From: Mustelus asterias
Lineage: Eukaryota
DNA: 64,000 nucleotides
Assembly (NCBI RefSeq): GCF_964213995.1
Contig: NW_027590120.1
Coordinates: 1,798,001-1,862,000 of the forward strand
Direction of reading: 5' to 3'
Shown: in pieces, positions 6,004 through 64,000 of the stretch
How the letters are laid out: every line of letters starts with the position of its first letter
Numbering within the stretch: position 1 is the stretch's first letter
Program-made: the position numbers and the translations under genes
Notes under the pieces: model-generated
Databases searched by the model: none
What the model was told of the DNA's origin: nothing
What the model saw: the letters and a program-made list of their open reading frames with translations, nothing else

Positions 6004-6600
6004 TGATCAGAACTGAATCCAGACAGAGGAGAGGGAGGGAGGGAGAAAACTGGGAATGGAGGAAAAGAATGTTGGAGATGATGAGATGGGTTTGGATTTC
6101 AGCCCAGGGAGGAGGGTGAGTGTGTGGGATGGGGATTTACAGATTTGGGGGAACAAGCGGAAAAAATGTTCCAGAGAAACTAGAATTGTCTGTTCAGAAT
6201 TTCGATCCTGGACTGACAGTAGTTTTGTTATCTTCTTTTGCAGGATATTTGAAGGGGAAGATTTACAGACTGGAAACTCAAATCAAATTTCATACGAATA
6301 TTTTACAATCATTCGATTTATCAGCACCTAAACTCAATTAGCCTTTGAATGTGGAAGGAAAAATGTTTGTTCTGCCTGTGGGAAAAGATTTCAAACATCA
6401 GTGTGACTGGAGAAGCATCGAGACACATGCACACACTGGAGTGAGACTGTTCCAGTGAACTGACTGGAAAGAGCTTTACCCAGTTACGCAGCCTGAAAAA
6501 CATCACACCATTCACTGTCAGGTGAAACCGTACACGCATTCTGTGTGGACGAGGATTTAACAGATCATCCAACCTGGAGAGACACAAAGACACCAGCACC

Positions 6601-7824
6601 ATGGAGAAACAGTGGAAATGTGAAGACTGTGGAAAAGTATGTAAAACCCCATCTCAGCTGGAAATTCATCGACGCAGTCACACTGGGGAGAGACCATTCA
6701 GCTGCTGTATGTGTGGTAAAAAATTCGCACAGTCATTTAGCCTGGTGTCACACCAGCGAGTTCACACTGAGGACAGACCTTTTAAATGCTCTGACTGTGG
6801 GAGCAGTTTTAAGAGTTCTGAGGGTTTAATTCAACATCAACGGGTTCACACTGGCGAGAGACCATTCAATTGCTCTCAATGTGGGAAGAACTTCAGGCAA
6901 GTATCTCACCTCACTGAACACCTACGTGTTCACACTGGGGAGAAACCGTTCACCTGCTCCATGTGTGGGAAGGGATTCACTTGTGCTTCCCACCTCACTG
7001 AACACAAGCGTGTTCACACTGGGGAGAGACCATTCAGCTGCTCTCAGTGTGGGAAACATTTCAGGCAGTATTCCACCCTCACTGAACACAAGCGTGTTCA
7101 CACTGGGGAGAGACCATTTCTTTGCTCCTTTTGTGGGAAAGGATTTGTTAAATCATCCCATCTTCTCAGACACCAGCGCATCCACACTGGAGAGAGACCA
7201 TTCACCTGCGCTGAGTGTGGGAAGAGATTCACTACAACATCTCACCTCAGTGAACACCAGAGTCTTCACACTGGGGAGAAACCTTTCACCTGCTGCTTAT
7301 GTGGCAAGGGATTCACATGTTTATCCTACCTCAGAAGAGACAAAATTGTTCACTCCGATGAGAGACCCTGTAAGTGTTCTGACTGTGGGAAGAGGTTTAA
7401 AAGCAGAAATGAACTGATGAAACACCAGCCTCTTCACACAGGGGAGAGACCGTTTGCTTGCTCTGTGTGTGGGAAGGGATTCACTCAGTCATCACAGCTC
7501 AGCAACCATCAGCTTGTTCACACTGATAAGAGACCGTTTAAATGCTCTGACTGTGGAAAGAGCGTTAAAAGTGCAGGGAATCTGCAGAGACACCAAACCA
7601 CCCACACTGAGAGAGGCTGTTCAGCTGCTCTTCATCTGGGAACTGATTCACTACTTCATCCCAAATCACTGAACACCTGCGGGTTCACACTGGTGGGAGG
7701 CCATTCCTCTGATTTGAGTGTGGGAAGGGATTCACTGTCATCCAGCCTGCTAAAGCACCAGTGCACCCCCACTGAGGGAGCATGTTCACCTGCTCCGTGT
7801 GAGACAAGGGATTCAATCAGTTAA
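6601..7824 (+). CDS. C2H2 zinc-finger protein, 12 fingers (finger 9 has H>D), frameshifted tail; decayed fingers continue to ~8505; exon acceptor at 6243|6244
   Basis: CxxC-x12-HxxxH repeats with TGERPF linkers in the ORF translation; no KRAB/SCAN/BTB visible. Confidence 0.88.
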   Translation: MEKQWKCEDCGKVCKTPSQLEIHRRSHTGERPFSCCMCGKKFAQSFSLVSHQRVHTEDRPFKCSDCGSSFKSSEGLIQHQRVHTGERPFNCSQCGKNFRQVSHLTEHLRVHTGEKPFTCSMCGKGFTCASHLTEHKRVHTGERPFSCSQCGKHFRQYSTLTEHKRVHTGERPFLCSFCGKGFVKSSHLLRHQRIHTGERPFTCAECGKRFTTTSHLSEHQSLHTGEKPFTCCLCGKGFTCLSYLRRDKIVHSDERPCKCSDCGKRFKSRNELMKHQPLHTGERPFACSVCGKGFTQSSQLSNHQLVHTDKRPFKCSDCGKSVKSAGNLQRHQTTHTERGCSAALHLGTDSLLHPKSLNTCGFTLVGGHSSDLSVGRDSLSSSLLKHQCTPTEGACSPAPCETRDSIS

Positions 7825-9690: not shown

Positions 9691-10141
9691 AAAATAAAGT
9701 TATGGATAATTATTTCTGTATGCTTTTAACAAATTTGGTATAGAATGATGTCCAAAGAGATGGATCAGCATAAGCTCATTTAATAATAGAGCTTGATGGC
9801 CGAATGGCCTACTCTGGCTCCTATTTCCTATTTCCCATGATCTTGTGTTCTCAAGTGTTATATATCAACTTATTAATTGTCACGAGTGTTGCCTGTATCT
9901 CCATTATTTTTTACCATTTACCTATGTGAACTGCTGGTGTGTATCAAATGGAATGTGTACTGTACTTTCATTGCACTATTGGAGTTTTACAATGTTTATG
10001 CCATTGTGGGATATCTTCTGAGAAAGGTGATGAATTAAAAGTAACAAGTACAAGGAAAGATTTACAACATACAAGCTGTCAACGGCAGGAACAAATCAAT
10101 CCTTGCATTGTGTTGGCTGCTGGCTGCGGAATATAATTGGG

Positions 10142-10421
10142 ACATACACACTGGGCAGTGCTGTACAGTGTAATAGGGGCACACACACTGGGCAGTGCTG
10201 TACAGTGTAATAGGGGCACACATACTGGGCAGTGCTGTACAGTGTAATAGGGGCACACACACTGGGCAGTGCTGTACAGTGTAATAGGGGCACACACACT
10301 GGGCAGTGCTGTACAGTGTAATAGGGGCACACATACTGGGCAGTGCTGTACAGTGTAATAGGGGCACACATACTGGGCAGTGCTGTACAGTGTAATAGGG
10401 GCACACACACTGGGCAGTGCT
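10142..10421. repeat. 37-bp minisatellite, ~7.5 copies
   Basis: ctgggcagtgctgtacagtgtaataggggcacaca(c/t)a at 10151, 10188, 10225, 10262, 10299, 10336, 10373, 10410. Confidence 0.95.
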
Positions 10422-10422
10422 A

Positions 10423-12850
10423 AAGGGACTTTAACTTTGCAAATATTGACTGGAAAAGCTATAGTTCGAGTACTTTAGATGGGTCAGTTTTTGTCCAATG
10501 TGTGCAGGAGGGTTTCCTGACACAGTATGTGGATAGGCCAACAAGAGGCAAGGCCGCATTGGATTTGGTACTGGGTAATGAACCAGACCAGGTGTTAGAT
10601 TTGGAGGTAGGGGAGCACTTTGGTGATAGTGACCACAATTTGGTTATGTTTACTTTAGAGATGGAAAGGAATAGGTATATACTGAAGGGCAAATATTATA
10701 GTTGGGGGAAAGGAAATTATGATGCGATTAGGTGAGATTTAGGATGCATAGGTTGGGGAAGGAAACTGCAGGGGATGGGCACAATTGAAATGTGGAGCTT
10801 GTTCAAGGAACAGCTACTGGGTTTCCCTGATAAGTATGTACCTGTCAGGCAGGGAGGAAGTGGTCGAGTGAGGGAATCGTGGTTTACTAAAGAAGTTGAA
10901 TCTCTTGTGAAGAGGAAGAAGGAGACTTATATAAAGATGAGACGTGAAGGCTCAGTTAGGGCGCTTGAGAGTTACAAGTTAGCCAGGAAGGACCTAAAGA
11001 GAGAGTTAAGAAGAGCCAGGAGGGAACATGAGAGGTCTTTGGCAGGTAGGATCAAGGAAAACCCTAAAGCTTTCTATAGGTATGTCAGGAATAAAAGAAT
11101 GACTAGGGTAAGATTAGGGCCAGTCAAGGACGGTAGTGGGAAGTTGTGCGTGGAGCATGAAGAGATAGGAGAGGCGCTAAATGAATATTTTTCGTCAGTA
11201 TTCACGCAGGAAAAAGACAATGTTGTCGAGGAGAATACTGAGATACAGGCTATTGGACTAGATGGGATTGAGGTTAATAAGGAGGAGGTGTTAGCAATTC
11301 TGGACAGTGTGAAAATAGATAAGTCCCCTGGGCCGGATGGGATTCATCCCAGGATTCTCTGGGAGGCTAGGGAGGAGATTGCAGAGCCTTTGCCTTTGAC
11401 CTTTATGTCGTCATTGACTACAGGAATAGTGCCAGAAGACTGGAGGATAGCAAATGTTGTCCCTTTGTTCAAGAAGGGGAGTAGAGACAACCCTGGCAAT
11501 TATAGACCAGTGAGCCTTACTTCTGTTGTGGGCAAAGTTTTGGAAAGGATTATAAGAGATAGGATTTATAATCATCTGGAATGGAATAATTTGATTAGGG
11601 ATAGTCAACACGGTTTTATGAAGGGTAGGTCGTGCCTCACAAACCTTATTGAGTTTTTTGAGAAGGTGACCAAAGAGGTGGATGAGGGTAAAGCAGTTGA
11701 TGTGGTGTATATGGATTTCAGTAATGCGTTTGATAAGGTTCCCCACGGTAAGCTATTGCAGAAGATACGGAGGCATGAGATTGAGGGTGATTTAGCGGTT
11801 TGGATCAGGAATTGGCTAGCTGTAAGAAGGTGGTGGTTGATGGGAAATGTTCATCCTGGAGTTCAGTTACTAGTGGTGTACCACAAGGATCTGTTTTGGG
11901 GCCACTGCTGTTTGTCATTTTTATAAATGACCTGGATGAGGGCGCAGAAGGATGGGTTAGTAAATTTGTGGATGACACTAAAGTTGGTGGAGCTGTGGAG
12001 TGCAGAAGGTTGTTGCAGGTTACAGAGGGACATAGATAAGCTGCAGTGCTGGGCTGAGAGGAGGCAAATGGAGTTCAATGCGCAAAAGTGTGAGGTGATT
12101 CGCTTTTGAAGGAGTAACAGGATTACAGAGTACTGGGCTAATGGTAAGATACTTGGTAGTGTGGATGAACAGAGAGATCTCGGTGTCCATGTGCATAGAT
12201 CCCTGAAAGTTGGCACCCAGGTTGATAGGGTTGTTAAGAAGGCGTACGGAGTGTTAGCTTTTATTGGTAGAGGGATTGAGTTTCGGAGCCAGGAGGTCAT
12301 GTTGCAGCTGTACAAAACTCTGGTCCAGCCGCACTTGGAGTATTGCGGACAGTTCTGGTCACCGCATTATAGGAAGGATGTGGAAGCATTGGAAAGGGTG
12401 CAGAGGAGATTTACTAGGATGTTGCCTGGTATGGTGGGAAGGTCTTATGAGGAAAGGCTGAGGGACTTGAGGTTGTTTTCGTTAGAGAGAAGGTTAAGAG
12501 GTGACTTAATAGAGGCTTACAAGATGATCAGAGGATTAGATAGGGTGGATAGTGAGAGACTTTTTCCTCAGATGGTGATAGCTAGCACGAGGGGACATAG
12601 CTTTAAATTGAGGGGTGATAGATATAGGACAGATATCAGAGGTAGGTTCTTCACTCAGAGAGTAGTAAGGGCGTGGAATGCCCTGCCTGCAGCAGTAGTG
12701 GACTCGCCAACATTAAGGACATTTAAATGGTCATTGGATAAACATATGGATGATATTGGAATAGTGTAGGTTAGAGGGGCTTTAGATTGGTTTCACTGGT
12801 CGGCACAACATCGAGGATGAAGGGCCTGTACTGCGCTGTTATGTTCTATG
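10423..12850 (+). mobile_element. 5'-truncated CR1/HER1 LINE (end of APE domain, RT, 3' tail), frameshifted
   Basis: ORFs 10502 (LDLVLGNE..SDH), 10775 (KSPGPDG, NYRPVSLTS, QHGF, YMDFSNAFDKVPH), 11800 ([10 protein letters not shown]), 12161; tail gttatgttctatg. Confidence 0.95.
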
Positions 12851-16188: not shown

Positions 16189-16274
16189 CTAAGGTGATTA
16201 GATTTTACTGTTAATAAGATCAGGACTGATCCATGTTCATTGGGGTCTGTTTCTGTTCATGTTGGTAAACTTCA

Positions 16275-16378
16275 AACCAAAAGAGAAAATGCTGGAAAAT
16301 CTCAGCAGGTCTGGCAGCATCTTTAAAGAGAGAAAAGAGCTGACGTTTCAAGTCCAGATGACCCTTTGTCAAAGCTTA
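16275..16378 (-). ncRNA. Repeat arm with family-2 hammerhead motif (16338-16376), U3:A8 core
   Basis: AGCU-UUGACAA-A-GGGUC.AUCUG.GACUU-GAA-ACGU-C-AGCU on minus strand. Confidence 0.7.
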
Positions 16379-20013: not shown

Positions 20014-20812
20014 AAAGTCCAACAGGTTTATTTGGTAGCAAAAGACACTAGCTTTCGGAGCGCTGCTCCTTTGTCAGGTGAATGGGATTTCAGTTCACAA
20101 ACAGGGCATATAAAGACAAACTCAATTTACAAAATAATGGTTGGAATGCGAGTCTTTATAGGTAATCCAGTCTTAAAGGTACAGACACTGTGAGTGGAGA
20201 GAGGGTTAAGCACAGGTTAAAGAGATGTGTATTGTCTTCAGCCAGGACAGTTAGTGAGATTTTGCAAGCCCAGGCAAGTCGTGGGGGTTACAGATGGTGT
20301 GACATGAACCCAAGATCCTGGTTGAGGCCGTCCTCATGTGTGCGGAACTTGGCCATCAGTCTCTGCATTCTCCAAGGCGGCCTTCACGACAACGCAGAGT
20401 CGCTGAGCAGAGACTGATAGCCAATTTCCGCGCACGAGGACGGCCTCAACCGGGATCTTGGGTTCATGTCACACTATCTGTAACCCCAACGACTTGCAAA
20501 ATCTCACTAACTGTCCTGGCTGGAGACAATACACATCTCTTTAACCTGTGCTTAACCCTCTCTCCACTCACATTGTCTGTACCTTTAAGACTTGATTACC
20601 TGTAAAGACTCGCATTCTAACCATTATTTTGTAAATTGAGTTTGTATCTTTATATGCCCTGTTTGTGAACAGAACTCCCACTCACCTGAAGAAGGGGCTT
20701 GGGGCTCCGAAAGCTCGTGGCTTTTGCTATCAAATAAACCTGTTGGACTTTAACCTGGTGTTGTGACACTTCTTACTGTGTTTACCCCAATTCAACGCTG
20801 GCATCTCCACAT
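20014..20812. mobile_element. Inverted pair of Penelope-like 3' fragments (minus 20014-20365, plus 20366-20812)
   Basis: Arms are reverse complements; encode ILQGGLHD...AEQRLIA endonuclease end; one hammerhead motif per arm. Confidence 0.85.
20683..20719 (+). ncRNA. Minimal type I hammerhead ribozyme, intact core (family 1); predicted cleavage after C20716
   Basis: CAC-CUGAAGA-A-GGGGC.UUGGG.GCUCC-GAA-AGCU-C-GUG. Confidence 0.75.
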
Positions 20813-23424: not shown

Positions 23425-23605
23425 GAGAGAGAATAGATGAACATTTCGAGTCTGGATGACCCTTTGTCAGAACTCTGATGAAGGGCCATCCAGACTTTAA
23501 ATGTTGGCTCCATTCTCTCTCCACAGATGCTGTCAGACCTGCTGACATTTTCCAGCATTTTCTGTTTTTGTTTCAGATTCCAGCATCCGCAATATTTTGC
23601 TTTTA
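23425..23605. mobile_element. Palindromic non-coding repeat with two decayed head-to-head family-2 hammerheads (other copies 38015-38200, 41865-42030, 42782-42930, 59478-59605)
   Basis: ttcgagtctggatgaccctttgtcag-aact-ctgatgaagggccatccagact; arm acagatgctg.cagacctgctgagattttccagcattttctg. Confidence 0.75.
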
Positions 23606-24620
23606 TATGTATTTATATATCCAAATGTGCTATGTTAACAAAATGGACAGTTACTAACCGAAACATAAAGCATCATGTGATTTAGCTGACTTGACCATAT
23701 TCCTATAGTTATTCAGTCATTAAAGACACAGTCATGGAGCATTAAACTTGCCAAGCAGGGTCCCTTGTATCAGCACACAGGCCGCTGCTTTGTGAGACTG
23801 CGAGCAGAACAGACAAGTCAGAGATAAGAGTGTCTTGAGAAGAGAGATTCATTGTGAAGGATCAGGGACAGTTGATAAGATGTAGGAATTCTATGATTCT
23901 AATGAACATTCTTTCCTCTCTCATTTCCCAAAAGCTGTAAATCTCCATCCCACACACTCTCCCTCCATTCTCACTCTGCTGTATCTAATATTCACCCTCC
24001 CAGTTCTCCTGAAGGTGCTGATTGAGGCTGATTAACAGATCCATGCTCACTGCTTCCTGTCCTGGACACAGAAATCATAAGAAACAGGAGCTGCAGTTGG
24101 CCATTCAGCCCATCGAACTGCCTCAACCATTCATTGAGAATTGGCTGATCTACCACAGCATCATTTCCCACGCTATCCCCCAGATAGAGAGAGAATAGAG
24201 CCAATGTTTCGAGTCTGGAGAGAGGAAAGAATGTTCCATAGAAACTAGAATTGTGTGTTCTGAATTTCTATCCTGCACTGACACTGATGATCTCTGTAAA
24301 CTTGTTTGACAGGATATTGAAAGAGGAATCACAGGCCGAAATCTCAAACGTTGTGTCTAGACCTGACAGAGTCATATTCCTTAGGACCTGAATATCATCG
24401 GCCTTTGAATCGAGGAGAAATGGTTGTCCGGTCTGATGACTTGAAAAGATTTCAAACATCAGTGTGACTGGAAAAGTGCCAACACACTGCCAGACTGGAG
24501 TGAGTGTGTTCCAGTGCACTGAGCTTGAACCAGTTACACAGCCTGAATAAATATCACACCATTCACAGCAGGGGTGTGGACGAGTCTTCAACTGAAGAGA
24601 GAGGCAAGGACACCTGCACC

Positions 24621-25547
24621 ATGGAGAAACCATGGAAATGTGGGGACTGTGGGAAGAGATACAGATACCCATCTGATCTGGAAGCTCATCGGCGCAGCCA
24701 CACTGGGGAGAGGCCATTTACTTGCTCTCACTGTGCGAAGGGATTCAGTCAGTTATCCAGCCTGCGGACACACCAGCGAGTTCACACTGGGGAGAGGCCA
24801 TTCACCTGCTCTCAGTGTGAGAAGGGATTCACTGATTTATCCACCCTGCGGACACACCAGCGAGTTCACACTGGGGAGAGGCCGTTCACCTGCTCTCAGT
24901 GTGGGAAGGGGTTCAGTCGATTATCCAGCCTGCAGAGACACCAACGAGCTCACACTGGGGAGACACCATTCACCTGTTCTCAGTGTGGGAAGGAATTCAC
25001 TCGGTCATCCAGCCTGCAGACACACCAGCGAGTTCACACTGGGGAGAGACCGTTCACCTGCTCTCAGTGTGGGGAGGGATTCACTCGGTCATCCAGCCTG
25101 CGGACACACCAGCGAGTTCATGCTGGGGAGAGGCCATTCACCTGCTCTCAGTGTGAGAAGGGATTCACTGATTTATCCACCCTGCAGAGACACCAGCGAG
25201 TTCACACTGGGGAGAGACCGTTCACCTGCTCTCAGTGTGGGAAGGGATTCACTGATTTATCCACCCTGCGGAGACACCAGCGAGTTCACACTGGGGAGTG
25301 GCCGTTCACCTGCTCTATGTGTGGGAAGGGGTTCAGTCAATTAGCTAAGCTGGAGACCCACCAGCGTGTTCACACTGGGGAGAGACCATTCACCTGCTCT
25401 CAGTGTGAGAAGGGATTCACTAGTTTATTCACCCTGCGGAGTCACCAGCGAGTTCACACTGGGGAGAGGCCGTTCACCTGCTCTCAGTGTGGGAAGGGAT
25501 TCAGACTTTCATCCCAGCTGCTGAGACACCAACAAGTTCACAAGTGA
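24621..25547 (+). CDS. C2H2 zinc-finger protein, 11 intact fingers, 308 aa from ATG 24621; acceptor 24312|24313
   Basis: Uninterrupted 11 x 28-aa array, MEKPWKC...HQQVHK*. Confidence 0.9.
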
Positions 25548-27915: not shown

Positions 27916-29224
27916 CAGCTCCCCTGTTGTTATATGGGACAGATTAGATATATTATTTATAGCTCTGTAATAAAATACACTTATTATATCTGGCTGTGTA
28001 ATTTTGGACTGCAGCTATATTATATATTTCCAACAATCTCTTCCCTCAGAGAATTGTTAGTATCTAGATTTCTCTTCCATAGGGACCAGTGGAGGGATTG
28101 AATATATTCAAGGATGAGTTGGACAGTTTGTGAATGACAAGGGAGTCAATAATTATTGGGAACGGGCTGGAAAATGGAGAGAAAGCTCAGATGAGGAAGG
28201 ATTTCATCACTGAAGGATGTGGTGATGTTTTGGATTCTCTACCCCAGAGGACGATAGAGCCTCAGTCATCAAGAATTTTCAAGAGAGGGATTGATAGGTT
28301 TCTAGATATTGAAGATATCGATGGATATGGGGGACAGTGTGGGGAAAATAATGCAGAGGTAGATCAACCAATAATCTCAATGAATGGTTGAGCAGACTCG
28401 ATGGGCCGAATGCTGACTGCAGCTCCTATTTGTTCTGATTTCTGTGCTGGACAGGAAGCAGTGAGCATGGATCTGTCAATCAGCCTCAATCAGCACCTTC
28501 AGGAGAATTGGGAGGGTGAATATTAGATGCAGCAGAGTGAGAATGGAGGGAGAGTGTGTGGGATGGAGATTCACAGCTTTTGGGGAATGAGAGGGGAAAG
28601 AATGTTCATTAGAATCATAGAATTGCTGCATCTTATCAACCGTCCCTGAGCTTTCACAATGAATCCCACTTCTGAGGACACCCTTATCTCTGACTTGTCT
28701 GTACTGCTGGCAGTCTCACAAAGCAGCTGCCTGTGTGCTGATACGGGAGGCCCTGCTGGGCAGGTTTAATGCTCCATGACTGTGTCTTTAATGAATGCTC
28801 CATAGAAACTAGAAATGTAGATTTGAATTTCGATCGTATTCTGAATTGCGATGTTTTTTCTAAATTGACTTACAGGATATTAGACAAGGAGAAATCAGAC
28901 AGAAATCTCCAACATCACATCGAGATCTGACAGAGTGACTCGATTTCTTGGGACCTGAAATCATCGGCCTTTGAATCGAGCAGGAGAAATGTTTGTTTGG
29001 CCTCTTGGCTTCAAAAGATTGTAAACATCGCTGTGACTAGAAATGCACTGAGATACACACACCCGAGTGAGAGTGTTCCAGTGCACTGAGTGTGGAAAGA
29101 GCTTTAACCAGTTACACAGCCTGAAAATACATCGCAGCATTCACAGTGGGGAGAGACTGTACCCGTGTTCTGTGTGAGATTTAACTGATTGTTTAACCTG
29201 GAGAGTCACAAGGACACCCGCACC

Positions 29225-30505
29225 ATGGAGAAACCGTGGAAATGTGGGAAGGGATTCAGGTTCCCATCTGAGCTGGAAATTCATCAACACAGTCACACTG
29301 GGGAGAGACCATTCACCTGCTCTGTGTGTGGGAAGGGATTCACTGACTTACCTAATCTGCAGAGACACCAACGAGTTCACACTCGGGAGAGGCCATTCAC
29401 CTGCTCTGTGTGTGGGAAGGGATTCACTCAGTTATCCAGCCTGCAGAAACACAATCTCTCTCACACCAATGAGAGACCCTTTAAATGCTCTGACTGTGGG
29501 AGTGGTTTCAAAAGCTCTCGGGAACTGATGATCCACCAGCGCATTCACACCGAGGAGAGACCGTTCAGCTGCTCTCACTGCACAAAGACATTTAGAACAT
29601 CATCCCACCTGCGGGAGCACCAACGAGTTCACACCGGGGAGAGACTGTTCACCTGCTCGGTGTGTGGGAAGGGATTCACTCATTCATCAAACCTGTGCAG
29701 ACACAATCTCACTCACAGCAATGAGAGACCCTTTAAATGCTCTGACTGTGGGAGCGGATTCAAAAGCTCTCATGGACTGATGTCCCACCAGCGCATTCAC
29801 ACTGAGGACAGACCGTTCAGCTGCTCTCACTGCACAAAGAGATTTAGAACTTCATCCGAACTGCGGAGACACCAGCGAGTTCACACCGCGGAGAGGCCGT
29901 TCCCCTGCTCTGTGTGTGGGAAGGGATTCAGTCAGTCATCCAGCCTGCAGAAACACAAAGCCACTCACTCCAATGAGAGACCATTTAAATGCTCTGACTG
30001 TGGGAATGGATTCAAAAGCTCTCAGGATCTGATGTCCCACCAGCGCATTCACACTGAGGAGAGACCGTTCAGCTGCTCTCACTGCACAAAGAGGTTTAGA
30101 ACATCATACAGCCTGCTGAAACACCATCGAGTTCACACCGGGGAGAGACCATTCACCTGCTCGGTGTGTGGGAAGGGATTCACTACTTCATCCCACCTGC
30201 GCAGACACAAAGTCACTCACACTAATGAGAGACCGTTTAAATGCTCTGACTGTGGGAGCGAATTCAAAAGCTCTCAGGATCTGGTGTCCCACCAGCGCAT
30301 TCACACTGAGGAGAGACCGTTCAGCTGCTCTCACTGCTCAAAGAGGTTTAAAAGGTCATCCAGCCTGAGGGAACATCAGCGAGTTCACACTGGGGAGAGA
30401 CCATTCACCTGCTCTGTGTGTGGGAAGGGATTCACTACTTCATCCATCCTGCTGAGACACAAAGCCACTCACTCCAAGGAGAGACCCTTTAAATGCTGTG
30501 CCTGA
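29225..30505 (+). CDS. C2H2 zinc-finger protein, 15 fingers (first lacks one Cys via 9-nt deletion), 426 aa; decayed fingers to ~30885; acceptor 28875|28876
   Basis: ORF 29189-30505; periodic CSVC/CSDC/CSHC fingers. Confidence 0.9.
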   Translation: MEKPWKCGKGFRFPSELEIHQHSHTGERPFTCSVCGKGFTDLPNLQRHQRVHTRERPFTCSVCGKGFTQLSSLQKHNLSHTNERPFKCSDCGSGFKSSRELMIHQRIHTEERPFSCSHCTKTFRTSSHLREHQRVHTGERLFTCSVCGKGFTHSSNLCRHNLTHSNERPFKCSDCGSGFKSSHGLMSHQRIHTEDRPFSCSHCTKRFRTSSELRRHQRVHTAERPFPCSVCGKGFSQSSSLQKHKATHSNERPFKCSDCGNGFKSSQDLMSHQRIHTEERPFSCSHCTKRFRTSYSLLKHHRVHTGERPFTCSVCGKGFTTSSHLRRHKVTHTNERPFKCSDCGSEFKSSQDLVSHQRIHTEERPFSCSHCSKRFKRSSSLREHQRVHTGERPFTCSVCGKGFTTSSILLRHKATHSKERPFKCCA

Positions 30506-36683: not shown

Positions 36684-37526
36684 TCACTCGTGAACTTGCT
36701 GGTGTCTCAGCAGGTGGGATGAAACTCTGAATCCCTTCCCACACTGAGAGCAGGTGAATGGTTTCTCCCCAGTGTGAACTCGCTGGTGTGCCCGCAGGTC
36801 GGATGATTGAGTGAATCCCTTCCCACACTGGGAGCAGGTGAACGGCCTCTCCCCAGTGTGAATTCGCTGGTGTGTCTGCAGGCTGGATAACTGAGTGAAT
36901 CCCTTCCCACACTGGGAGCAGGTGAATGGCCTCTCCCCAGTGTGAACTCGCTGGTGTGTCTGCAGGGTGGATAACTGAGTGAATCCCTTCCCACACTGAG
37001 AGCAGGTGAACGGTCTCTCCCCAGTGTGAACTCGCTGGTGTGTCTGCAGGTTAGATGAACAAGTGAATCCCTTCCCACACTGAGAGCAGGTGAACGGCCT
37101 CTCTCCAATGTGAACTCGCTGGTGTCTCTGCAGGCTGGATAACTGAATGAATCCCTTCCCACACTGAGAGCAGGTGAATGGCCTCTCCTCAGTGTGAACT
37201 CGCTGGTGTGTCTGCAGGTGGGATGACTGAGTGAATCCCTTCCCACATTGAGAGCAGGTGAATGGCCTCTCCTCAGTGTGAACTCGCTGGTGTGTCTGCA
37301 GGTGGGATGACTGAGTGAATCCCTTCCCACATTGAGAGCAGGTGAATGGCCTCTCCCCTGTGTGAACTCGCTGGTGTGTCTGCAGGCTGGATAACTGAAT
37401 GAATCCCTTCTCACACTGAGAGCAGATGAACGGCCTCTCCCCAGTGTGGCTGCGCCAATGAGCTTCCAGCTGTGATGGGGCTCTGTATCCCTTCCCACAG
37501 TCCACACATTTCCATGGTTTCTCCAT
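36684..37526 (-). CDS. C2H2 zinc-finger protein, 10 intact fingers, 280 aa from ATG 37526; acceptor at 37877; inverted paralog of the 24621 gene
   Basis: Uninterrupted 10 x 28-aa array. Confidence 0.9.
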
Positions 37527-38199
37527 GGTGCAGGTGTCCTTACCTCTCTCTTGGGTGGACAATTAGTTGAAACTTCGTCCACACACAGAACAAGATTACA
37601 GTCTCTACCCGCTGTGAATGGTGTGATATTTATTCAGACTGTGTAATTGGTTTAAGCTCTTTAGTCAGTGCAATGGAACACTCTCACTCGAGTGTGGCAG
37701 TGTGTCGATGCTTTTTCACTCACACTGACATTTCAAATCTTTTCAAATTGACAGACTGGACAATCATTTCTCCTTCTGGATTCAAAGTCTGATGATATTG
37801 AGGTCCCAAGGAATATGATTCTGTCGCGTCTAGACGTGACGTTTGAGATTTCAGCCTGTGATTCCTCTTTCAATATCCTGTAAAATGAGTTTACAAAAGT
37901 CATCAGTGTCAGTACAGGATAGAAATTCAGAACAGACAATTTCTATGGAACATTCTTTCCTCTCTCATTCCCCAAAAGCTGGAAATCTCCATCCCACACA
38001 CTCTCTCCCCATTCTCAGCAGGTCTGGCAGCATCTGTATGGAGAGAAAAGAACTGATGTTTCAGAGCTTTGACAAAGGGTCGTCTAGACAAGAAACATCA
38101 GCTCTTTTCTCTCCTTACAGATGCTGCCAGACCTGCTGACATTTTCCAGCATTTTCTCTCTTGGTTTCAGATTCCAGCATCCGCAGTAATTTGCTTTTA

Positions 38200-39230
38200 T
38201 AAGGCTGCAGATACCTCCTCCCAAGTAACATGCGTGTGCCCAAGACATCACCACTTGTTTCCCTTATTTCTTTAGCACCCATGGTGCTCTCCGCAGTAAA
38301 CACAGAGGAGAAGTATTCATTAAAAATCTCACCCATCTCCTGTGGCTCCACACACAGATGGCCATACTGATTTTTAAGGGGATCTATTCTCTCTCTCTAG
38401 CCACCCTTTTACTCTTAATATAGCTATAGAACCTCTTGGAATTTTCTTTAATCTTACCTGCCAGATCCATATCATACCCTCTTTTTGTCCTCCTGATTTC
38501 CCTCCTCAGTATTTTCTTACACTTTTTATAGTCAGAGTGATTCACTTGTCCCCGATTTCCTAAACCCAATGTATGCTTCCTTCTTTTACCTGACCAGAGC
38601 CTCAATGTCCCTTGTCTGCCAGAGATCCTTAAATTTACCATTATTTCCCTTCACCTTAACAGGAATATACTGCCCCTGGACTCTTGATATCACACTTTTA
38701 AAACCTCCCATTTGCCAGTCATTCCTTTCCCTTCAAACAAACTCACCGAATCGACATCTGCTCGATCCTGCCTAATGGCCACAAAAGTGGCCCTGCTCCA
38801 GTTTAGGGCCTTGACCTGTGGACCTGTCCTATTTTTTTCCAGAACTATTTTGAAACTATTGGTGCTCCCAATAGTGCTCCCTGACTGACACTTCAGTCAC
38901 TTGCTCCACCTCATTTCTTAACTGTCTAATAGAAAGTGAGTCCAGGAATTGATGATGAAAAATAAGGAGCTGGGAGATGAATTGAACAAGTATTTTGCCT
39001 CGATGTTCACAATAGAGGATACAGTTAAAACTCAGAAACAGCTGGAAATCAGAAAACAGAAGTGTGGGATGAACCCTGAAAAAGCACAATTCCCAGGGAA
39101 GTGGTCCTCAGCAAACTGTTGGAGCTGTGGGCTGATGGGTCCTCGGGTCCTGCTGGGCTTCATTCTCGGGTCCTGCTGGGCTTCATTCTCGGGTCCTGCT
39201 GGGCTTCATTCTCGGGTCTGAACAGAGGGA
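38200..39230. mobile_element. Internal CR1 ORF2 fragments (minus ~38200-38925, plus ~38930-39230) ending in a 23-bp tandem (39142-39218)
   Basis: KIKENSKRFYSYIKSKR, EIFNEYFSSVFT, ELNKYFASMFT; gggtcctgctgggcttcattctc x3. Confidence 0.75.
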
Positions 39231-41429: not shown

Positions 41430-42775
41430 ACCCCCATTACCGAGACAGTGAGACAGAGATTACAAACACTCACCAACACAGCTCCACTGAAACGTCCCAG
41501 GAAAAAGAGGGAATCTGTGGCGGTTCCTGTCCTGAAATAGCCCCAGGACTGTCACTCAAACCCCCAACCCGGCCCAGTTCACAGCTCAGCCTCTCAGCTT
41601 GCAGCTTCCTGCACCTTGAGCCAACCCTGTCCAGGTGTGGGAGGGATGTGGAACCACAGAGTGGGGGGAGGGGTGACCTCCTGCTGTGCCCCAAATAGTT
41701 TCTCCTTCCCCTCCCCCATGACGCTCTAAGGTCTGAATGTGGATGTGTTGATGGACATTGCAGAGCCTCACGGAGCTGCGCCTGTCCCTTATCCTGGGTC
41801 ACCCCCTCCCCCTGGGTCCAGTGTGTTCAGTTCGCTGCTTCTTTCCCTGCTGAACCTTCAGTTAATCAAAAACAGAAAGTGCTGGAAAACCTCAGCAGGT
41901 CTGATCGCATCTGTGATCATCCAGACTGGAAACATTAACTCCATTCTCTCTCCACAGATGCTGTCAGACCTGCTGAGATTTTCCAGCATTTTCTGTTTCA
42001 GATTCCAACACCCGCAGTATTTTGCTTTTATCTTCATTTAAAGAAGCATTCTGTGAAGGCCTTTACCCCCATTGCTCCTTTCCAGAGCTTCCCACCTTCT
42101 GCTATTGTCCCTGACTCCCACAGTAACTGTCATTCCTTCCCTTTATCCCGCTCACATCCCGCTCGAAACTCAGGCTCAGAGTTTTACCGCCATCTCCCCC
42201 TCCCCCAGCTCCCACATCCCAACACCCGGAATCTCTAACCCAGCGGTTCCAGTTTGTCTGGTTTGAGTTCAGATTTGCCGCAGCACCGACAGGATTTCAC
42301 TTCAAACCAGCCGGAACTGACTGCTCACAAATCCCAAAACGTTTCTCCAGCAGCCCGGGCTTGTTCACGTTGTTTAAAGTCAGCGCCCAAATGCAGTTAC
42401 TCTCCTCAGTTTAAAAAACTTCTCCGTTTAATCCAAAGTATTATTCGCACCAGACATAAACACAAAATTGTGAACGTTACCCACCGCCCCCCTCTCCTCT
42501 CCCCCGCCCCCCCCAACCAGACCCGAGCTGGGGTGTCCTGAGTAAGAGACATCTGTTTCGGGTGTGACAATTCTTACACATTCTCTGGTTGACATCAAAC
42601 GGAAAACGCTGGAAATTGCCCCCATTACCGAGATAGTGAGACAGAGATTACAAACACTCACCAACACAGCTCCAGTGAAATGTCCCAGGGAAAAGGGGGA
42701 ATCTGTGGCTGTTCCTGTCCTGATATCGCCCCAGGACTGTCACTCAAAACCTCAACGCCGCCCAGTTCACAGCAA
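41430..42775. repeat. ~155-bp direct duplication (41430-41585 and 42619-42774) containing a minus-strand donor TTG|GTGAGT
   Basis: cccccattaccgaga.agtgagacagagattacaaacactcaccaacacagctcca in both. Confidence 0.8.
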
Positions 42776-42971
42776 ATTGCTGCTTTTGTCAAAAGGGTCA
42801 CTTGGACTCGAAACCTCAGCTCTTTTTGTCTCCTTACAGATGCTGCCAGACCTGCTGAGATTTTCCAGCGTTTTCTCTTTTGGCTGGAAATACTCAACAA
42901 GTCAGGCAGCCTCTGTGGAGAGAGAAACAGACTGAATGTGACCTGTCATCGGAACTGGGAAATATAATATT

Positions 42972-44333: not shown

Positions 44334-44371
44334 GTCTTTGACAAAGGGTCATCTGGACTCGAAACGTCAGC
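44334..44371 (+). ncRNA. Family-2 hammerhead motif with U3:A8 core; predicted GUC cleavage after 44368
   Basis: GUCU-UUGACAA-A-GGGUC.AUCUG.GACUC-GAA-ACGU-C-AGC; stem I weakened. Confidence 0.7.
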
Positions 44372-44388
44372 ACTTTTCTCTCCTGACA

Positions 44389-44866
44389 AATGCCCGTGAC
44401 CACTGAAGTGCGTCATGGGCATTCAGCCTCTGATCTTTGGGTAAACATTCTCCAAGGCGGCCTTCAGGACACACGACAGCGCAGAGTCGCTGAGCAGAAA
44501 CTGATAGCCAAGTTCCGCACACATGAGGACGGCCTAAACCGGGATGTTGGCTTGATGTCACACTATCAGTAATCCCCACAGCTTGCCTCCTGGACTTGCT
44601 GGTTGTCCTGTCTGGAGACAATACGAATCTCTTTAACCTGTGCTTAATGCTCCCTCCACTCACATTGTCTGTATCTTTAAGAACTGGTTGGCTGTAGAGA
44701 TTTGCATTCTAATCAGTATTCTGTAACTTGATTTTGTGTCTCTGTGCACTGTTTGAGAGCAGATTTCCACTCCATCTGACGAAGGAGCAACGCTCCAAAA
44801 GCTAATGGTATTTGCTATCAAATAAACCTGTTGGACTTTAACCTGGTGTTGTTAAAACTGTTACTC
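44389..44866 (+). mobile_element. Penelope-like 3' fragment with short inverted 5' end; hammerhead 44772-44808 carries G12A
   Basis: ORF 44390 HGHSASDLWVNILQGGLQDTRQRRVAEQKLIAKFRTHEDGLNRD. Confidence 0.85.
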
Positions 44867-47013: not shown

Positions 47014-47740
47014 GCTGCGACAACGGATCATAGAAATCATAGAAACCCTACAGTGCAGAAGGAGGCCATTCGGCCCATCGAGTCTGCACCGACCACAATC
47101 CCACCCAGGCCCTACCCCCACATATTTACCCACTAATCCCTCTAACCTACGCATCTCAGGACTCTAAGGGGCAATTTTTAACCTGGCCAATCAACCTAAC
47201 CCGCACGTCTTTGGACTTTGGATGAATGAACACCGCTCGACCATCATCAGGAAAGACTGTTCTCTTCCTGTGGGGGAGCACTTCAGCAGTCACGGGCATT
47301 CAGCCTTGGATCTTCAGGTAAGCATTCTCCAAGGCGGCCTACACGACAGCGCAGAGTCGCTGAGCAGAAACTGATAACCAAGTTCCGCACACATGAGGAC
47401 GGCCTAAACCGGGATGTTGGATTTATGTCACATTATCAGTAACCCCCACAGCTTGCCCCCTGGACTTGCAGAATCTTACTAGCTGTTCTGTCTGGAGACA
47501 ATACACATCTCTTTAACCTGTGTTTAATGCTCCCTCCACCCACATTGTCTGTACCTTTAAGACCTGGCTGGTTGTAGGGATTCGCATTCTAATTAGTATT
47601 CTGTAACTTGATTTGTGTCTCTGTGCACTGTTTGAGAGCACATTTCCACTCCATCTGACGAAGGAGCAGCGCTCCGAAAGCTTATGGTATTTGCTACCAA
47701 ATAAACTTGTTGGACTTTAACCTGGTGTTGTGAGACTCAC
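47014..47740 (+). mobile_element. Penelope-like 3' fragment interrupted by minus HE1 3' half (47028-47219)
   Basis: ctgcgacaacggat|SINE|ggatgaatgaacaccgc rejoins to LRQRMNEHR. Confidence 0.85.
47651..47687 (+). ncRNA. Minimal type I hammerhead ribozyme, intact core (family 1); predicted cleavage after U47683
   Basis: CCAU-CUGACGA-A-GGAGC.AGC.GCUCC-GAA-AGCU-U-AUGG. Confidence 0.78.
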
Positions 47741-48185
47741 TGGAGCCCCAGGCCATTCTTGCCATCCTGCCAGGTCTCGGGTACTGAGGCCAGTAGTAAA
47801 GTTTATTAATGCGTCACAAGAAGGTTTACATTCGCACTGTAAGTAAGTTACTGTGAAAATCCCCGAGTCGCCACACTCCGGCACCTGTTCGGGTACACTG
47901 AGGGAGAATTCAGCATGGCCAATGCACCTAACCATTATGGTATTTGCTACCAAATAAACCTGTTGGACTTTAACCTGGTGTTGTGAGACCTCTTACCGTG
48001 TTCACCCCAGTCCAACGCTGGCATCGCCACATCATCCCCTCCTGTCCACCAGAGGTCGCTGTAGGCCTCCCAGCTGCTGCTCCTCCCAGTGTCACCTCTT
48101 GCCCACTCCAGCCCCTCCAGTACACCTCACTGGAGCCCCAGGCCATTCTTGCCATCCTGCCAGGTCTCGGGTACTGAGGCCAGTA

Positions 48186-49881: not shown

Positions 49882-51087
49882 TCACTGGTGAACTCGCTGG
49901 TGTCTCACCAGGTTGTGTGACTGGGTGAATCCCTTTCCACACATTGAACAAGTGAACGGCTTCTCCTCACTATGAACTTGTTGGTGTCTCAGCAGAATGG
50001 ATGACCGGGTGAATCCTTTCCCACACTCAGTGCAGGTGAACGGTCTCTCCTCAGAGTGATTTCGCTGGTGTGCGAGCAGAAGTTTTCTGCTTTTAAAGCT
50101 CTTCTCACAGTCAGAACATTTGAACGGTCTCTCATTTGTGTGAACAAGTTGGTGTGAAGTGAGAGAGGATAAACAAGTGAATCCCTTCCCACACACAGGG
50201 CAGGTGAACGGCCTCTCCCCAGTGTGAGTTCGCTGGTGTACAGTGAGGTCGCCTGATCGCCTGAAGCCAGTCCCGCAGTGAGAACACATGAATGGTCTCT
50301 CGTCAGAGTGAACACGTTGATGGTGACGCAGTTCCTCAGAACTTTTATAGCCCTTCCCGCAGTCTGGACATTTAAACAGTCTCTCTTCACTGTGAACTCG
50401 TTGGTGTTTCTGCAGGTTGAATGATCGGTTAAACCCCTTCCCACATTCAGAGCAGGTGAATGGCCTCTCTCCAGTGTGAATGCGCTCATGTGCCACAAGG
50501 TGGAATGATGTCCTGAACCCCTTCTGGCAGTGGGAGCAGCTGAACGGTGTGGAACCGGTGTGAATGTACTGGTGCTCCCGGAGTGTGCGTGGAGTTTTAA
50601 AACTCTTTCCACACTCAGTGCATTTAAACTCTCTCCTGTCGGTGTGAACTGGCTGGTGTCTCTGCAGGGCAGAGAAATCTGTGAATCCCTTCCCACACTC
50701 AGAGCAGGTGAATGGCCTCTCCCCTGTGTGAATGTGCTGATGTATCAGCAGGGCCGATGACTGAGTAAATCCTTTTCCACATTCGGAGCAGGTGAACTGC
50801 CTCTCCCTGCTGTGAATGCGCTGGTGAATCAACAGGCCAGCTGTCTGAGTGAATCCCTTCCCACACACAGGGCAGGTAAAAGGTCTCTCTCCAGTGTGAG
50901 TGCGTTGGTGATTTTGCAGGTCAACTGGATAATTGAATCCTTTCCCACAGTCTCCACATTTATACGGTCTCTCCCTGGTGTGACTGCGCTTGTGTCTCGA
51001 CAGGCCAGATGATCGATTGAAGCCTTGTCCACATACAGAACACGTGTACAGTGTCTCCTCTCTGTGAACGGTGCTTTTTTCTTCCAT
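49882..51087 (-). CDS. C2H2 zinc-finger protein, 14 intact fingers (401 aa from ATG 51087; frame open back to acceptor 51193, possibly 470 aa with exon 54994-54894)
   Basis: ORF 49882-51345; ttttcag acceptor; MEEKSTVH start homologous to 15159 and 17773. Confidence 0.9.
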
Positions 51088-51814
51088 GTTCAAAGGCTGA
51101 TGATGTTTAGATCCTGATGAATCAAAGCTCCCTGTCTGATCTTGATGTGATCCTTGATTTACAATTTTCTGTAATTCCTCACCTTCTAATCCGCTGAAAA
51201 ATGAATTGAAAACAGAAAGAGGGAACCATGAGAGACAAGCCATAAATATACAAAGACAAAATGTGAAATTGAGTTGAACTAATCTGGTAAATTGTGGGAT
51301 TCGGACTAGGACATAGTGGATATGAAAGCTGCTGGATTGTGACAAAGCCTCAAACTGTTTACCAATGCACTGAGGGAAAGGAACGCTCCACCTCTTCAGA
51401 GCCTACAACAAGAATCCAGCCTTTATGCGTGAAGAGGGAGAGGTCGGGAGGAGGGTGACGGAGAGAGACTTTATACATCAGCAACTCAACCAGGATTTTG
51501 GCAGAATCTCCTCAACCCACAATCTTCCCCACCTGGAAGTACCAGAGCAACTGGGACATGGGAAAACCACACAACTTCCTGACTTGGACAAATATCACTG
51601 TCCCTTCAACGTGACTGGGTTAAAATTCTAATGCTCTTGCATTGTGGGAGCACCTTTACTATATGGACTGCAGAGGTTCAAGAAGAAGAAGGCCAACTAT
51701 CACCATCACAAAGGATAATTGGTGATTGGTAACGTATCGCTGTCTGTGATAGTAATTCAGGACAAATACCTGGGCCTTTTTTGTTCTTTTGCAAATCTGT
51801 ATGAAACCTGCAAG

Positions 51815-58689: not shown

Positions 58690-61719
<3,030 letters not shown>

Positions 61720-62550
61720 CTGTGAAATTGATTTAAAATAGAAAAAAAAGGGAATGAGAGAGAATCCACAAAAACACAAACACAGGTCATGAAATTGAGG
61801 CCAGCACTAGGAAACAGTGACCATTAAAACTGGTGCGTTGTCATAACCCAACTGATTCACTCATGTCCTTCACGGAAGGAAACCCGCCACTTGGTCTAAA
61901 GTTTTAAAGTTTATTCATTTGTGTCACAAGTAGGCTTACATTAACACTGCAATGAAGTTACTGTGAAAATCCCCTAGTTGCCACACCCGGCGCCTGTTCA
62001 GGTACACTGAAGGAAAATTTAGCATGGCCAATGCACCTAACCAGCATGTCTTTCGGACTGTGGGAGGAAACCAGAGAACCCAGAGGAAACCCACGCAGAC
62101 ATGGGGAGAATGTGCAGACTCCATGCAGAAAGTGACCAAAGCCAGGATTCAAACCCAGGTCCCTAGCGCTGTGAGGCAGCAGTGCTAACCACTGTGCCAC
62201 CCAATCTAGAATGTAACCTCAATGGGAGGAGGAGAGTTGGGGTGGGGGAGAGGGCCTGGGTAAGACACTCTGTCACAAAGTCGGTGCAGACTTGATGGGC
62301 TGAATAGCCTCCTTCTGCACTGTAGGGATTCTATGAATGGACTCGAGGCTGGGTGAAGCATATTTTTAACCCACACGGGAGCCAAGGGTTACCAGTGGTG
62401 TGGGTATGCAGGGCAGGGTCAGGAAAGTTGTGTGCACACAAGCCATGATCTTGTTGAATTGAAAGTATTATTGATGGACCGAATGGCCTCTTCCTGATCC
62501 TAATTCTGATGTTCCTCTGATGGAGGGATACATGGCCATGAGCAGATGGT

Positions 62551-64000
62551 GACCCTGAGCCCGGACCCGTCGCCACGTCCTGAGCCCGGGCCCGTCGCCG
62601 TGCCCTGAACCCGGGCCTGTCACCGCACCCTGAACCCAGGCCCTGAACCCAGGCCCATCACCGCGCCCTGAACCCAAGCCTGTCGCCGCGCCCTGAACCC
62701 AAGCCTGTCGCCGCGCCCTGAACCCGGGCCTGTCACTGCGCCCTGAACCCAGGCCCCGAACCCGGGCCCATCACCGCGCCCTGAACCTGAGCCTGTTGCC
62801 GCGCCCTGAACCCAGGCCTGTCACCGCGCCCTGAACCCGGGCCCATCACCGCGCCCTGAACCCAAGCCTGTCGCCGCGCCCTGAACCCAAGCCTGTCGCC
62901 GCGCCCTGAACCCGGGCCTGTCACTGCGCCCTGAACCCAGGCCCCGAACCCGGGCCCATCACCGCGCCCTGAACCTGAGCCTGTTGCCGCGCCCTGAACC
63001 CAGGCCTGTCACCGCGCCCTGAACCCGAGCCTGTCACCGTGCCCCGAACCCGGGCCTGTCGCCGCGCCCTGAACCCGGGCCTGTCGCCGCGCCCTGAACC
63101 CGGGCCCATCACCGCGCCCTGAACCCGGGCCTGTCACCGCGCCCTGAACCCGGGCCTGTCACCGCGCCCTGAACCCGAGCCTGTCACCGTGCCCTGAACC
63201 CGGGCCTGTCGCCGCGCCCTGAACCCGGGCCCATCACCGCACCCTGAACCCGGGCCTGTCACCGCGCCCTGAACCCGGGCCTGTCACCGCGCCCTGAACC
63301 CGGGCCCATCACCGCGCCCTGAACCCGGGCCCATCACCGCGCCCTGAACCCGGGCCTGTCACCGCGCCCTGAACCCGGGCCTGTCACCGCGCCCTGAACC
63401 CGGGCCTGTCACCGCGCCCTGAACCCGGGCCCATCACCGCGCCCTGAACCCGGGCCCATCACCGCGCCCTGAACCCGGGCCTGTCACCGCGCCCTGAACC
63501 CGGGCCCGTCACCGCGCCCTGAACCCGGGCTGTCACCGCGCCCTGAACCTGAGCCTGTCGCCGCGCCCTGAACCTGAGCCTGTCGCCGCGCCCTGAACCC
63601 GGGCTGTCACCGCGCCCTGAACCTGAGCCTGTCGCCGCGCCCTGAACCCGGGCCCCGAACCTGGGCCCATCACCGTGCCCTGAACCCGAGCCTGTCGCCG
63701 CGCCCTGAACCCGAGCCTGTCGCCGCGCCCTGAACCCGAGCCTGTCGCCACGTCCTGAACCCGAGCCTGTCGCCCTGCCCTGAACCCGAGCCTGTCGCCG
63801 CGCCCTGAACCCGAGCCTGTCGCCCTGCCCTGAACCCGAGCCTGTCGCCGCACCCTGAACCCGAGCCTGTCGCCGCGCCCTGAACCCGAGCCTGTCGCCG
63901 CGCCCTGAACCCGGGCCTGTCGCCGCGTCCTGAACCCGGGCCTGTCGCCGTGCCCTGAACCCGGGCTCGTCGCCGCGCCCTGAACCCGAGCCTGTCGCCG
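62551..64000. repeat. GC-rich 25-bp tandem array, runs off the window
   Basis: ccctgaacccg(g/a)gcctgtc(a/g)ccgcg with period 25; local 188-bp higher-order duplication near 62640-63020. Confidence 0.97.

Follow-up and report, generated by a model that had tools for sequence, protein, structure and literature searches.

Hammerheads of Penelope-Like Elements and Retrozymes

Minimal hammerhead ribozymes (min-HHRs) have been described in the pseudo-LTRs (pLTRs) of metazoan Penelope-like elements (PLEs); Cervera and De la Pena (2014; PMC4209133) report among them a U3-A8 variant in the Cercyon PLE of Schistosoma mansoni, with ~1,300 hits. In vitro activity has also been stated for natural core variants with U3 and A8 (Perreault et al., 2011; PMC3088659). 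In the anole PLE, uncut RNA is the main template, hammerhead cleavage is not needed for insertion, priming is internal and cleavage needs protein (Frangieh et al., 2024; PMC11167929). The role of the hammerhead in PLEs has been called unclear (PMC8557442). Finally, the non-LTR retrozymes of animals are ORF-less tandem monomers of 170-400 nt, expressed as circles (Cervera and De la Pena, 2020; PMC7229834).

Here, a 64,000-nt stretch of shark DNA, called the window, and the genome to which it belongs were searched for hammerheads with a U3:A8 core. We propose, with a probability of about 0.7, that these motifs are hammerheads of the pLTR of a coding PLE, that their U3:A8 pair has a single origin, that it supports weak cleavage assisted by a dimer or by protein, and that the RNA of the element starts at stem I.

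Hammerhead Motifs in the Window

The window is a zinc-finger gene cluster with many LINE fragments. Three hammerhead motifs with a UUGACAA core are present, at 44334-44372 (+), 16338-16376 (-) and 38065-38103 (+), and inspection of the sequence confirms the arrangement of core and stems that a first-pass annotation had given for them. All copies of this family within the window are damaged. The 44334 copy has two of the four stem I pairs left, with core, stem II and stem III intact, and the 16338 copy carries C11.1 to U (CpG decay). The 38065 copy, said earlier to have damaged stems, indeed retains three of five stem II pairs and a non-palindromic stem III. Two sister copies, at 23471-23509 (+) and 59566-59604 (-), had been presented as canonical; they do match CUGANGA but are not canonical otherwise, G12 being lost in both. 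Several copies had been overlooked: a C3:A8 motif at 23436-23474 (-) that partners the 23475 copy in inverted orientation, a decayed motif at 42783-42821 (+) and a core-truncated pair at 41874-42031. Related copies were separated into subfamilies A and B by bases downstream of the core, and the features of the window are then as follows.

44334..44372, + strand: U3:A8 minimal type I hammerhead of subfamily A, predicted to be cut after 44368
44336..44393, + strand: extent of the subfamily A stub at this site, from about +3 of the likely RNA start, with a shortened tail (blastn and edge mapping)
16274..16376, - strand: subfamily A stub starting at the first stem I base, with hammerhead 16338-16376 (C11.1 to U) and tail
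38065..38200, + strand: subfamily A stub from stem I through the full tail, with hammerhead 38065-38103, stems II and III broken
38015..38062, - strand: inverted arm paired with the 38065 stub; it covers just the tail side and lacks the core
23471..23606, + strand: subfamily B (C3:G8) stub, with hammerhead 23471-23509, G12 lost
23425..23474, - strand: inverted partner arm; its hammerhead (23436-23474) has a C3:A8 core, a CpG-decay product
59478..59604, - strand: subfamily B stub, with hammerhead 59566-59604, C3:G8, G12 to A
42783..42883, + strand: decayed subfamily A stub, core scrambled
41874..42031, both orientations: head-to-head pair of related stubs, both ending inside stem II, without core
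44405..44572, + strand: endonuclease C-terminus of a different PLE family, inserted directly behind the 44336 stub and outside the U3:A8 element

Rfam returned no hammerhead in the window (E values up to 5), and five loci that carry near-master copies, of U3:A8 or C3:G8 type, likewise gave none. As near-master C3:G8 copies also escape Rfam, the U3:A8 pair is not the cause of the miss.

The window holds other repeats and genes. C2H2 zinc-finger arrays, each in a single exon and either intact or frameshifted, lie at 6526-7824, 24504-25547, 29189-30505, 36684-37562, 49882-51402 and 60913-61641, and a GC-rich 25-bp minisatellite and a 37-bp tandem repeat at 62500-64000 and 10086-10455. Other PLE families contribute C3:G8 min-HHRs at 20681-20720, 44770-44815, 47650-47690 and 47949 (+), and also at loci L066-L130; stem I covaries between lineages in these families, with five pairings found, and the copy near 47949 starts at about its own cut site.

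Core States Across the Genome

A degenerate 30-base pattern of the core has 5,134 exact matches in the 3.68-Gb genome and none for the reversed control, a number far above chance. On background A, 3,758 exact U3-C7-A8 copies were counted. Another 218 copies have a base other than U at position 3; the first 100 of these, read by eye, comprise 43 C3:A8, 8 C3:G8 and 49 with A or G. U3 accompanied by a base other than A8 occurs in 97 copies (by eye 59 G, 23 C and 15 U). On this background there are ~94 C3:A8 copies versus 59 U3:G8. Background B comprises 2,236 copies, the first 100 of which by eye are 73 C3:G8, 19 C3:A8, 4 U3:G8 and 4 with C8, with no U3:A8. At C7-G8, 17 B copies read CA and 29 TG (p 0.10 against symmetry); C3:A8 copies thereby mirror U7:G8 copies, which is the signature of CpG decay at C7-G8.

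The same picture is obtained when the core is disregarded. U3:A8 is present in 26 of 27 copies picked via the endonuclease end and in 70 of the 78 core-bearing copies among 100 picked by their tail. Since these picks agree with the pattern counts, the master of subfamily A carried U3:A8, and the idea that a master element bore both changes holds. Judged from these counts, U3:A8 is the inherited state of the whole of subfamily A, and C3:G8 that of its sister, subfamily B.

Exact matches to a 32-base stretch of the tail put the family at 9,267 copies or more. Its divergence is ~4% outside CpG and 22% at CpG sites (23 copies), and because of this CpG decay intact U3:A8 copies are a minority. In 814 kb of unselected DNA, a generic descriptor picked up 24 min-HHRs that are fully intact, of which 23 are C3:G8 and one A3:G8; intact U3:A8 motifs were absent from the same 814 kb, and shuffled sequence gave no intact min-HHR. 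The expectation that CUGANGA searches would overlook the subfamily is borne out, with at least 3,758 motifs missed in the genome.

Copies of subfamily B (for instance at L070 and L015) combine U17 with a U-G pair at 2.1-1.1, which under hammerhead rules makes a weaker cleavage triplet. Several B copies have a deletion from stem II to stem I via a 5-base look-alike (L298, L310, L317, L319). Elsewhere, a cluster of ~97%-identical duplicated segments (L174-L200; G000:C15, 80-84 Mb) has in each segment a PLE fragment beside a GPCR-like gene end, and six of these segments carry a hammerhead variant with A9 to G.

The Carrier Element

The hammerhead of the U3:A8 family is of type I, with a 4-bp stem I, a bulged A before stem II and the G10.1-C11.1 pair. 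In the subfamily master, stem II has 5 bp and stem III is the palindromic minimal ACGU; the core fits YUGANRA and GAA, with A15.1-U16.1 and H17, and the 3-8 pair is Watson-Crick. Its identification as a PLE minimal hammerhead is upheld; it lies in the pLTR of an element encoding a reverse transcriptase (RT) and a GIY-YIG endonuclease. In long copies, the hammerhead is preceded by a 410-nt 3' UTR and, upstream, by the RT-endonuclease ORF, so that the earlier term "non-coding repeat" does not apply. Pfam matches in copies contiguous with a U3:A8 motif are RVT_1 (PF00078) with E values of 7.8e-9 and 6e-7 and GIY-YIG (PF01541) with E values of 0.017 and 0.006, the latter two below the Pfam cut-off. 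At one locus (L202), a stop-free frame of 732 aa covers RT and endonuclease (PF00078, E 6e-7; PF01541, E 0.006, below cut-off) and is followed by the U3:A8 motif. Its translation contains a CX4CxxC linker ~30 aa ahead of the GIY-YIG core and a CxxC...H...H pattern. A CX2-5CxxC linker and a CCHH motif define the Neptune/Nematis type (PMC8557442). By this linker motif, the carrier is an endonuclease-bearing (EN+) PLE of Neptune/Nematis type.

The ORF-bearing unit is ~3 kb long and runs without a break through ORF, 3' UTR, TATA box, hammerhead and tail. The element shows partial tandems, inverted pLTRs and a tail with 3' ends piled at its end. In one partial tandem (L201), the endonuclease end, 3' UTR, hammerhead and tail are followed by the next ORF; in this single decayed copy, a candidate start codon lies ~170 nt downstream of stem I. 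The subfamily B hammerhead also stands behind an endonuclease end (L010). The leader at L201:2560-2735 has three pyrimidine-tract-AG motifs that resemble splice acceptors and a 22-codon upstream ORF that ends ~30 nt before the candidate start codon.

Origin of the U3:A8 Pair

Linkage between positions 3 and 8 had been suggested as evidence of compensation, with an excess of U3A8 over U3G8 as the test. The excess exists (3,758 versus 59), but descent explains it. Among 130 copies (99 A and 31 B, mostly selected by pattern), the association of U3, expressed as phi, is 0.66 for A8, 0.76 for C17, 0.84 for A1.1 and 0.73 for a loop base; positions 3 and 8 vary independently within each subfamily. 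Linkage as a proof of compensation is thus ruled out by the equal or tighter association of U3 with diagnostic sites that do not pair. As U3 is tied no more tightly to A8 than to C17, A1.1 or the loop base, the data point to one ancestral event and not thousands.

A comparison of the two masters is more informative on the fold. Of the 39 positions of the hammerhead, six differ between them (3, 8, two loop bases, 17 and 1.1), and the consensus is never broken; by comparison, the 3' UTR is 50% and the endonuclease end 79% identical between A and B (two single copies). The second change in the core hits the very base that pairs with G8; G12, likewise part of a CpG, is unchanged, as are the eight remaining invariant bases, and stems I-III are paired. 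By our own arithmetic, two changes among 11 invariant core bases would fall on the one pair with a chance of ~1 in 55; had G8 first decayed as a CpG, the chance would be ~1 in 10 to 20. This comparison gives modest support to selection on an active fold, and it rests on one event. It should also be noted that the leader from +1 to +135 is conserved throughout, with 15 differences between A and B, so the constraint is not specific to catalysis.

A coding explanation was also considered, both swaps being synonymous in one frame that is open across the leader. It was rejected, since several other A/B differences in this frame change amino acids, and it is also contradicted by the candidate ORF start, which lies downstream of the swaps.

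Traces of Cleavage

Copying of cut RNA would leave copies that start at the cut site (+36). Subfamily A has 73 such candidates genome-wide. None of 30 that were inspected by eye starts there with its own flank: 16 are AGCT-sharing inversions with a full arm, 3 are other inverted joints and 11 are deletions or point changes. Since AGCT stands at both ends of the motif, such inversions require no cut. Likewise, among 100 tail-picked A copies, two start at the cut, both of them AGCT inversions, and none with its own flank. In the control, made of other PLE families with C3:G8, 92 tail-picked copies include 4 to 5 whose start coincides with the cut or lies no more than two bases from it. In subfamily B, 5 to 6 of 30 inspected candidates, out of 39 in total, have their own flank (by eye). 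The difference between A (0/30) and B (6/30) has a p of 0.024, with no control at neighbouring positions. These counts, small as they are, lean against strong cleavage by U3:A8 in vivo; cut RNA may, however, simply not be copied. In the predicted best fold of the monomer, G5-A6-C7 pairs with the GUC cut site (probability unpaired 0.05), which is consistent with a need for a dimer or for protein.

These data bear on the possibility that the carrier is as described here and that its U3:A8 hammerhead is dead or irrelevant. In that case, decay of G8 as part of a CpG and a separate, unrelated transition of C3 to U would have been fixed in a master that had ceased to need cleavage, and the leader would be kept for the promoter, RT binding or translation. 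Such a course would fit the lack of a cleavage footprint in A, set against the few percent in C3:G8 families, the spread of at least 9,267 copies from templates that mostly retained the core, and a monomer fold predicted to be inactive. Moreover, hammerhead mutants of the anole element insert normally in vitro (PMC11167929), and Naiads thrive without a hammerhead (PMC8557442). Nevertheless, we consider it unlikely. The second change would have had to hit exactly the partner of G8, with G12, the eight other invariant bases and the stems kept, and the same swap is found in unrelated hammerheads (PMC4209133; PMC3088659). The footprint argument is also less sharp than it seems, since uncopied cut RNA would leave the same record and since the gap between A and the other families, 2/100 versus 4-5/92, is small if AGCT inversions count as cuts. 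Judging from the pair swap, it is plausible that U3:A8 retained cleavage, of which the genome bears no trace.

Where Copies Begin

In both A and B, a TATAAAT motif precedes the first A of stem I by exactly 30 nt, while the spacer diverges. Copies begin at this same A: 1,694 have their 5' edge at +1, with three non-element letters before it, versus 8 three bases upstream. Among the 100 tail-picked copies, 33 start at +1, 53 from +1 to +5 and 6 at +3; 20 are long, and in 80 the start is no further upstream than -5. By eye, about 54 of the first 100 copies with a +1 start are head-to-head palindromes centred on AGCT. Such palindromes mean that microhomology inflates the peak; the remainder is still far above the control. 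Assembled contigs from runs on other organisms have loose ends at the same +1 base (28, 20 and 25 in X1, X2 and X6; 315 in X15), the runs being presumed RNA and the contigs revealing neither RNA ends nor strand; these contigs also end at the tail end, before AT-rich DNA. From the TATA box at -30 and the edges at stem I, both read in DNA, an RNA start at stem I is deduced. It is likely that the hammerhead makes up the first 39 nt of the transcript and that uncut RNA is copied.

Perfect head-to-head palindromes on the stem I AGCT were seen, as well as full arms joined to an arm that starts from the second AGCT (L141-L170, L229, L257). Such AGCT palindromes are likely to result from annealing of two cDNA ends or from snap-back, via the self-complementary stem I sequence.

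Alternatively, the pile of edges at stem I could mark the end of an intron, or a stop of the RT at the stem, rather than the start of transcription. A putative TATA and an Inr have been noted in the pLTR of a rotifer PLE (PMC3846280). The promoter of the Penelope element of D. virilis has no TATA (PMC2377424), the intron of this element extends as far as the 5' boundary of helix I (PMC4209133), and in the shark element a pyrimidine tract with AG before the core resembles a 3' splice site. Splicing would, however, drop the AG that is retained in the most frequent start (33 copies at +1 versus 6 at +3). Besides, flanks are unique or consist of inverted arms, a shared upstream exon being absent, TATAAAT is held at -30 despite the diverging spacer, and the contig joints listed include no GT-AG joint. 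An intron end or an RT stop thus appears improbable, and a transcription start at stem I is preferred.

The first-pass reading of a non-autonomous, retrozyme-like element whose active U3:A8 hammerhead cuts out monomers or circles that are then copied would suit the many short, ORF-less copies (80 of the 100 tail-picked) and the palindromic stem III, apt for dimer cleavage, but it is very improbable and largely refuted by the ORF link: long copies reach RT and endonuclease, no tandem monomers of 170-400 nt were found in the 1.49 Mb examined, and short copies, dispersed or head-to-head, span stem I to tail and not cut site to cut site.

A Proposed Life Cycle

In the account that we favour, a coding PLE with its hammerhead at the RNA start, U3:A8 likely arose once, from a C3:G8 ancestor. 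The likely route is a change of G8 to A by CpG decay, followed by C3 to U, which would restore the Watson-Crick pair. The new pair likely keeps only weak cleavage, assisted by a dimer or by protein. Transcription would begin at the first stem I base, 30 nt behind the TATA box, and the hammerhead would thus be the first 39 nt of the mRNA. The RT of the element would prime in the tail, ~90-135 nt downstream, as the anole PLE does in vitro, and run off the 5' end of uncut RNA, leaving thousands of stubs of ~135 bp. Head-to-head pairs would join via the self-complementary AGCT. A cut after GUC would strip the 35 nt that bear the cap; cleavage would then be a side path, in decapping, turnover or translation control, and not the step that makes templates.

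It is tempting to go further and to view the cut of the shark PLE hammerhead as a self-decapping switch on a TATA-driven, capped mRNA rather than as the release of monomers, U3:A8 being a natural, low-cutting variant that grew into the larger of the two sister lineages and left hardly any copies starting at the cut; this more specific proposal is speculative and we hold it doubtful. If it were true, the A/B pair would test whether PLE hammerheads restrain or serve their carrier. Self-cleavage in viral 5' UTRs is reported to have a role in cap-independent translation (PMC13725137), and this is one possible function for a hammerhead at the start of an mRNA.

Comparison With Known Systems

A literature search for U3-A8 hammerheads by that name returned PMC4209133 only, and one supplement file of that paper which was searched contains no shark entry. 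No paper was found in the literature on PLE hammerheads of sharks or cartilaginous fish, on a TATA-hammerhead layout of the pLTR or on rescue of G8A; Lunse (2017), on PLE hammerhead variants, was outside the coverage of this search and may list shark or U3:A8 cases.

The closest likeness is to the metazoan PLE min-HHRs (PMC4209133). These share with the shark motif the type I topology, the 4-bp stem I, the extra base between A9 and G10.1, the G10.1-C11.1 pair and the palindromic minimal stem III, as well as the occurrence mostly as single motifs in truncated copies, the opposite-strand pairs and the U3-A8 swap itself. In comparison with Schistosoma Cercyon, the host here is a shark-like vertebrate, stem II has 5 bp, and the variant forms one dominant subfamily beside a C3:G8 sister. 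The TATA box at -30 and the edges at stem I found here are not treated in the results and discussion of that paper. The variants of Perreault et al. (PMC3088659) show the same covariation; in the available extract, they are not described as the master state of a high-copy vertebrate retroelement.

With Poseidon PAc of Anolis carolinensis (Frangieh et al., 2024; PMC11167929), the shark element has in common a pLTR hammerhead before the RT-GIY-YIG ORF, AT-rich targets at the tail and an uncut template. PAc, however, has C3:G8 and an ORF that starts inside the hammerhead, whereas the candidate start here lies ~170 nt downstream (one decayed copy), and the shark ORF differs from that of PAc by the CX2-5CxxC linker of Neptune/Nematis. 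Retrozymes (PMC7229834) likewise have a type I hammerhead, a stem III of the dimer type and a high copy number; unlike them, the shark family has an ORF, and its dispersed stubs start at stem I.

U3:A8 in PLE hammerheads has thus already been published, and the swap adds a vertebrate case of a known variant; fresher are the TATA box at -30 and the copies that start at stem I. With two sister subfamilies that have the same promoter layout and different core pairs, and with an RNA start and a cut site that can be mapped, it becomes testable whether the cut is a decapping brake, an aid to translation or a vestige.
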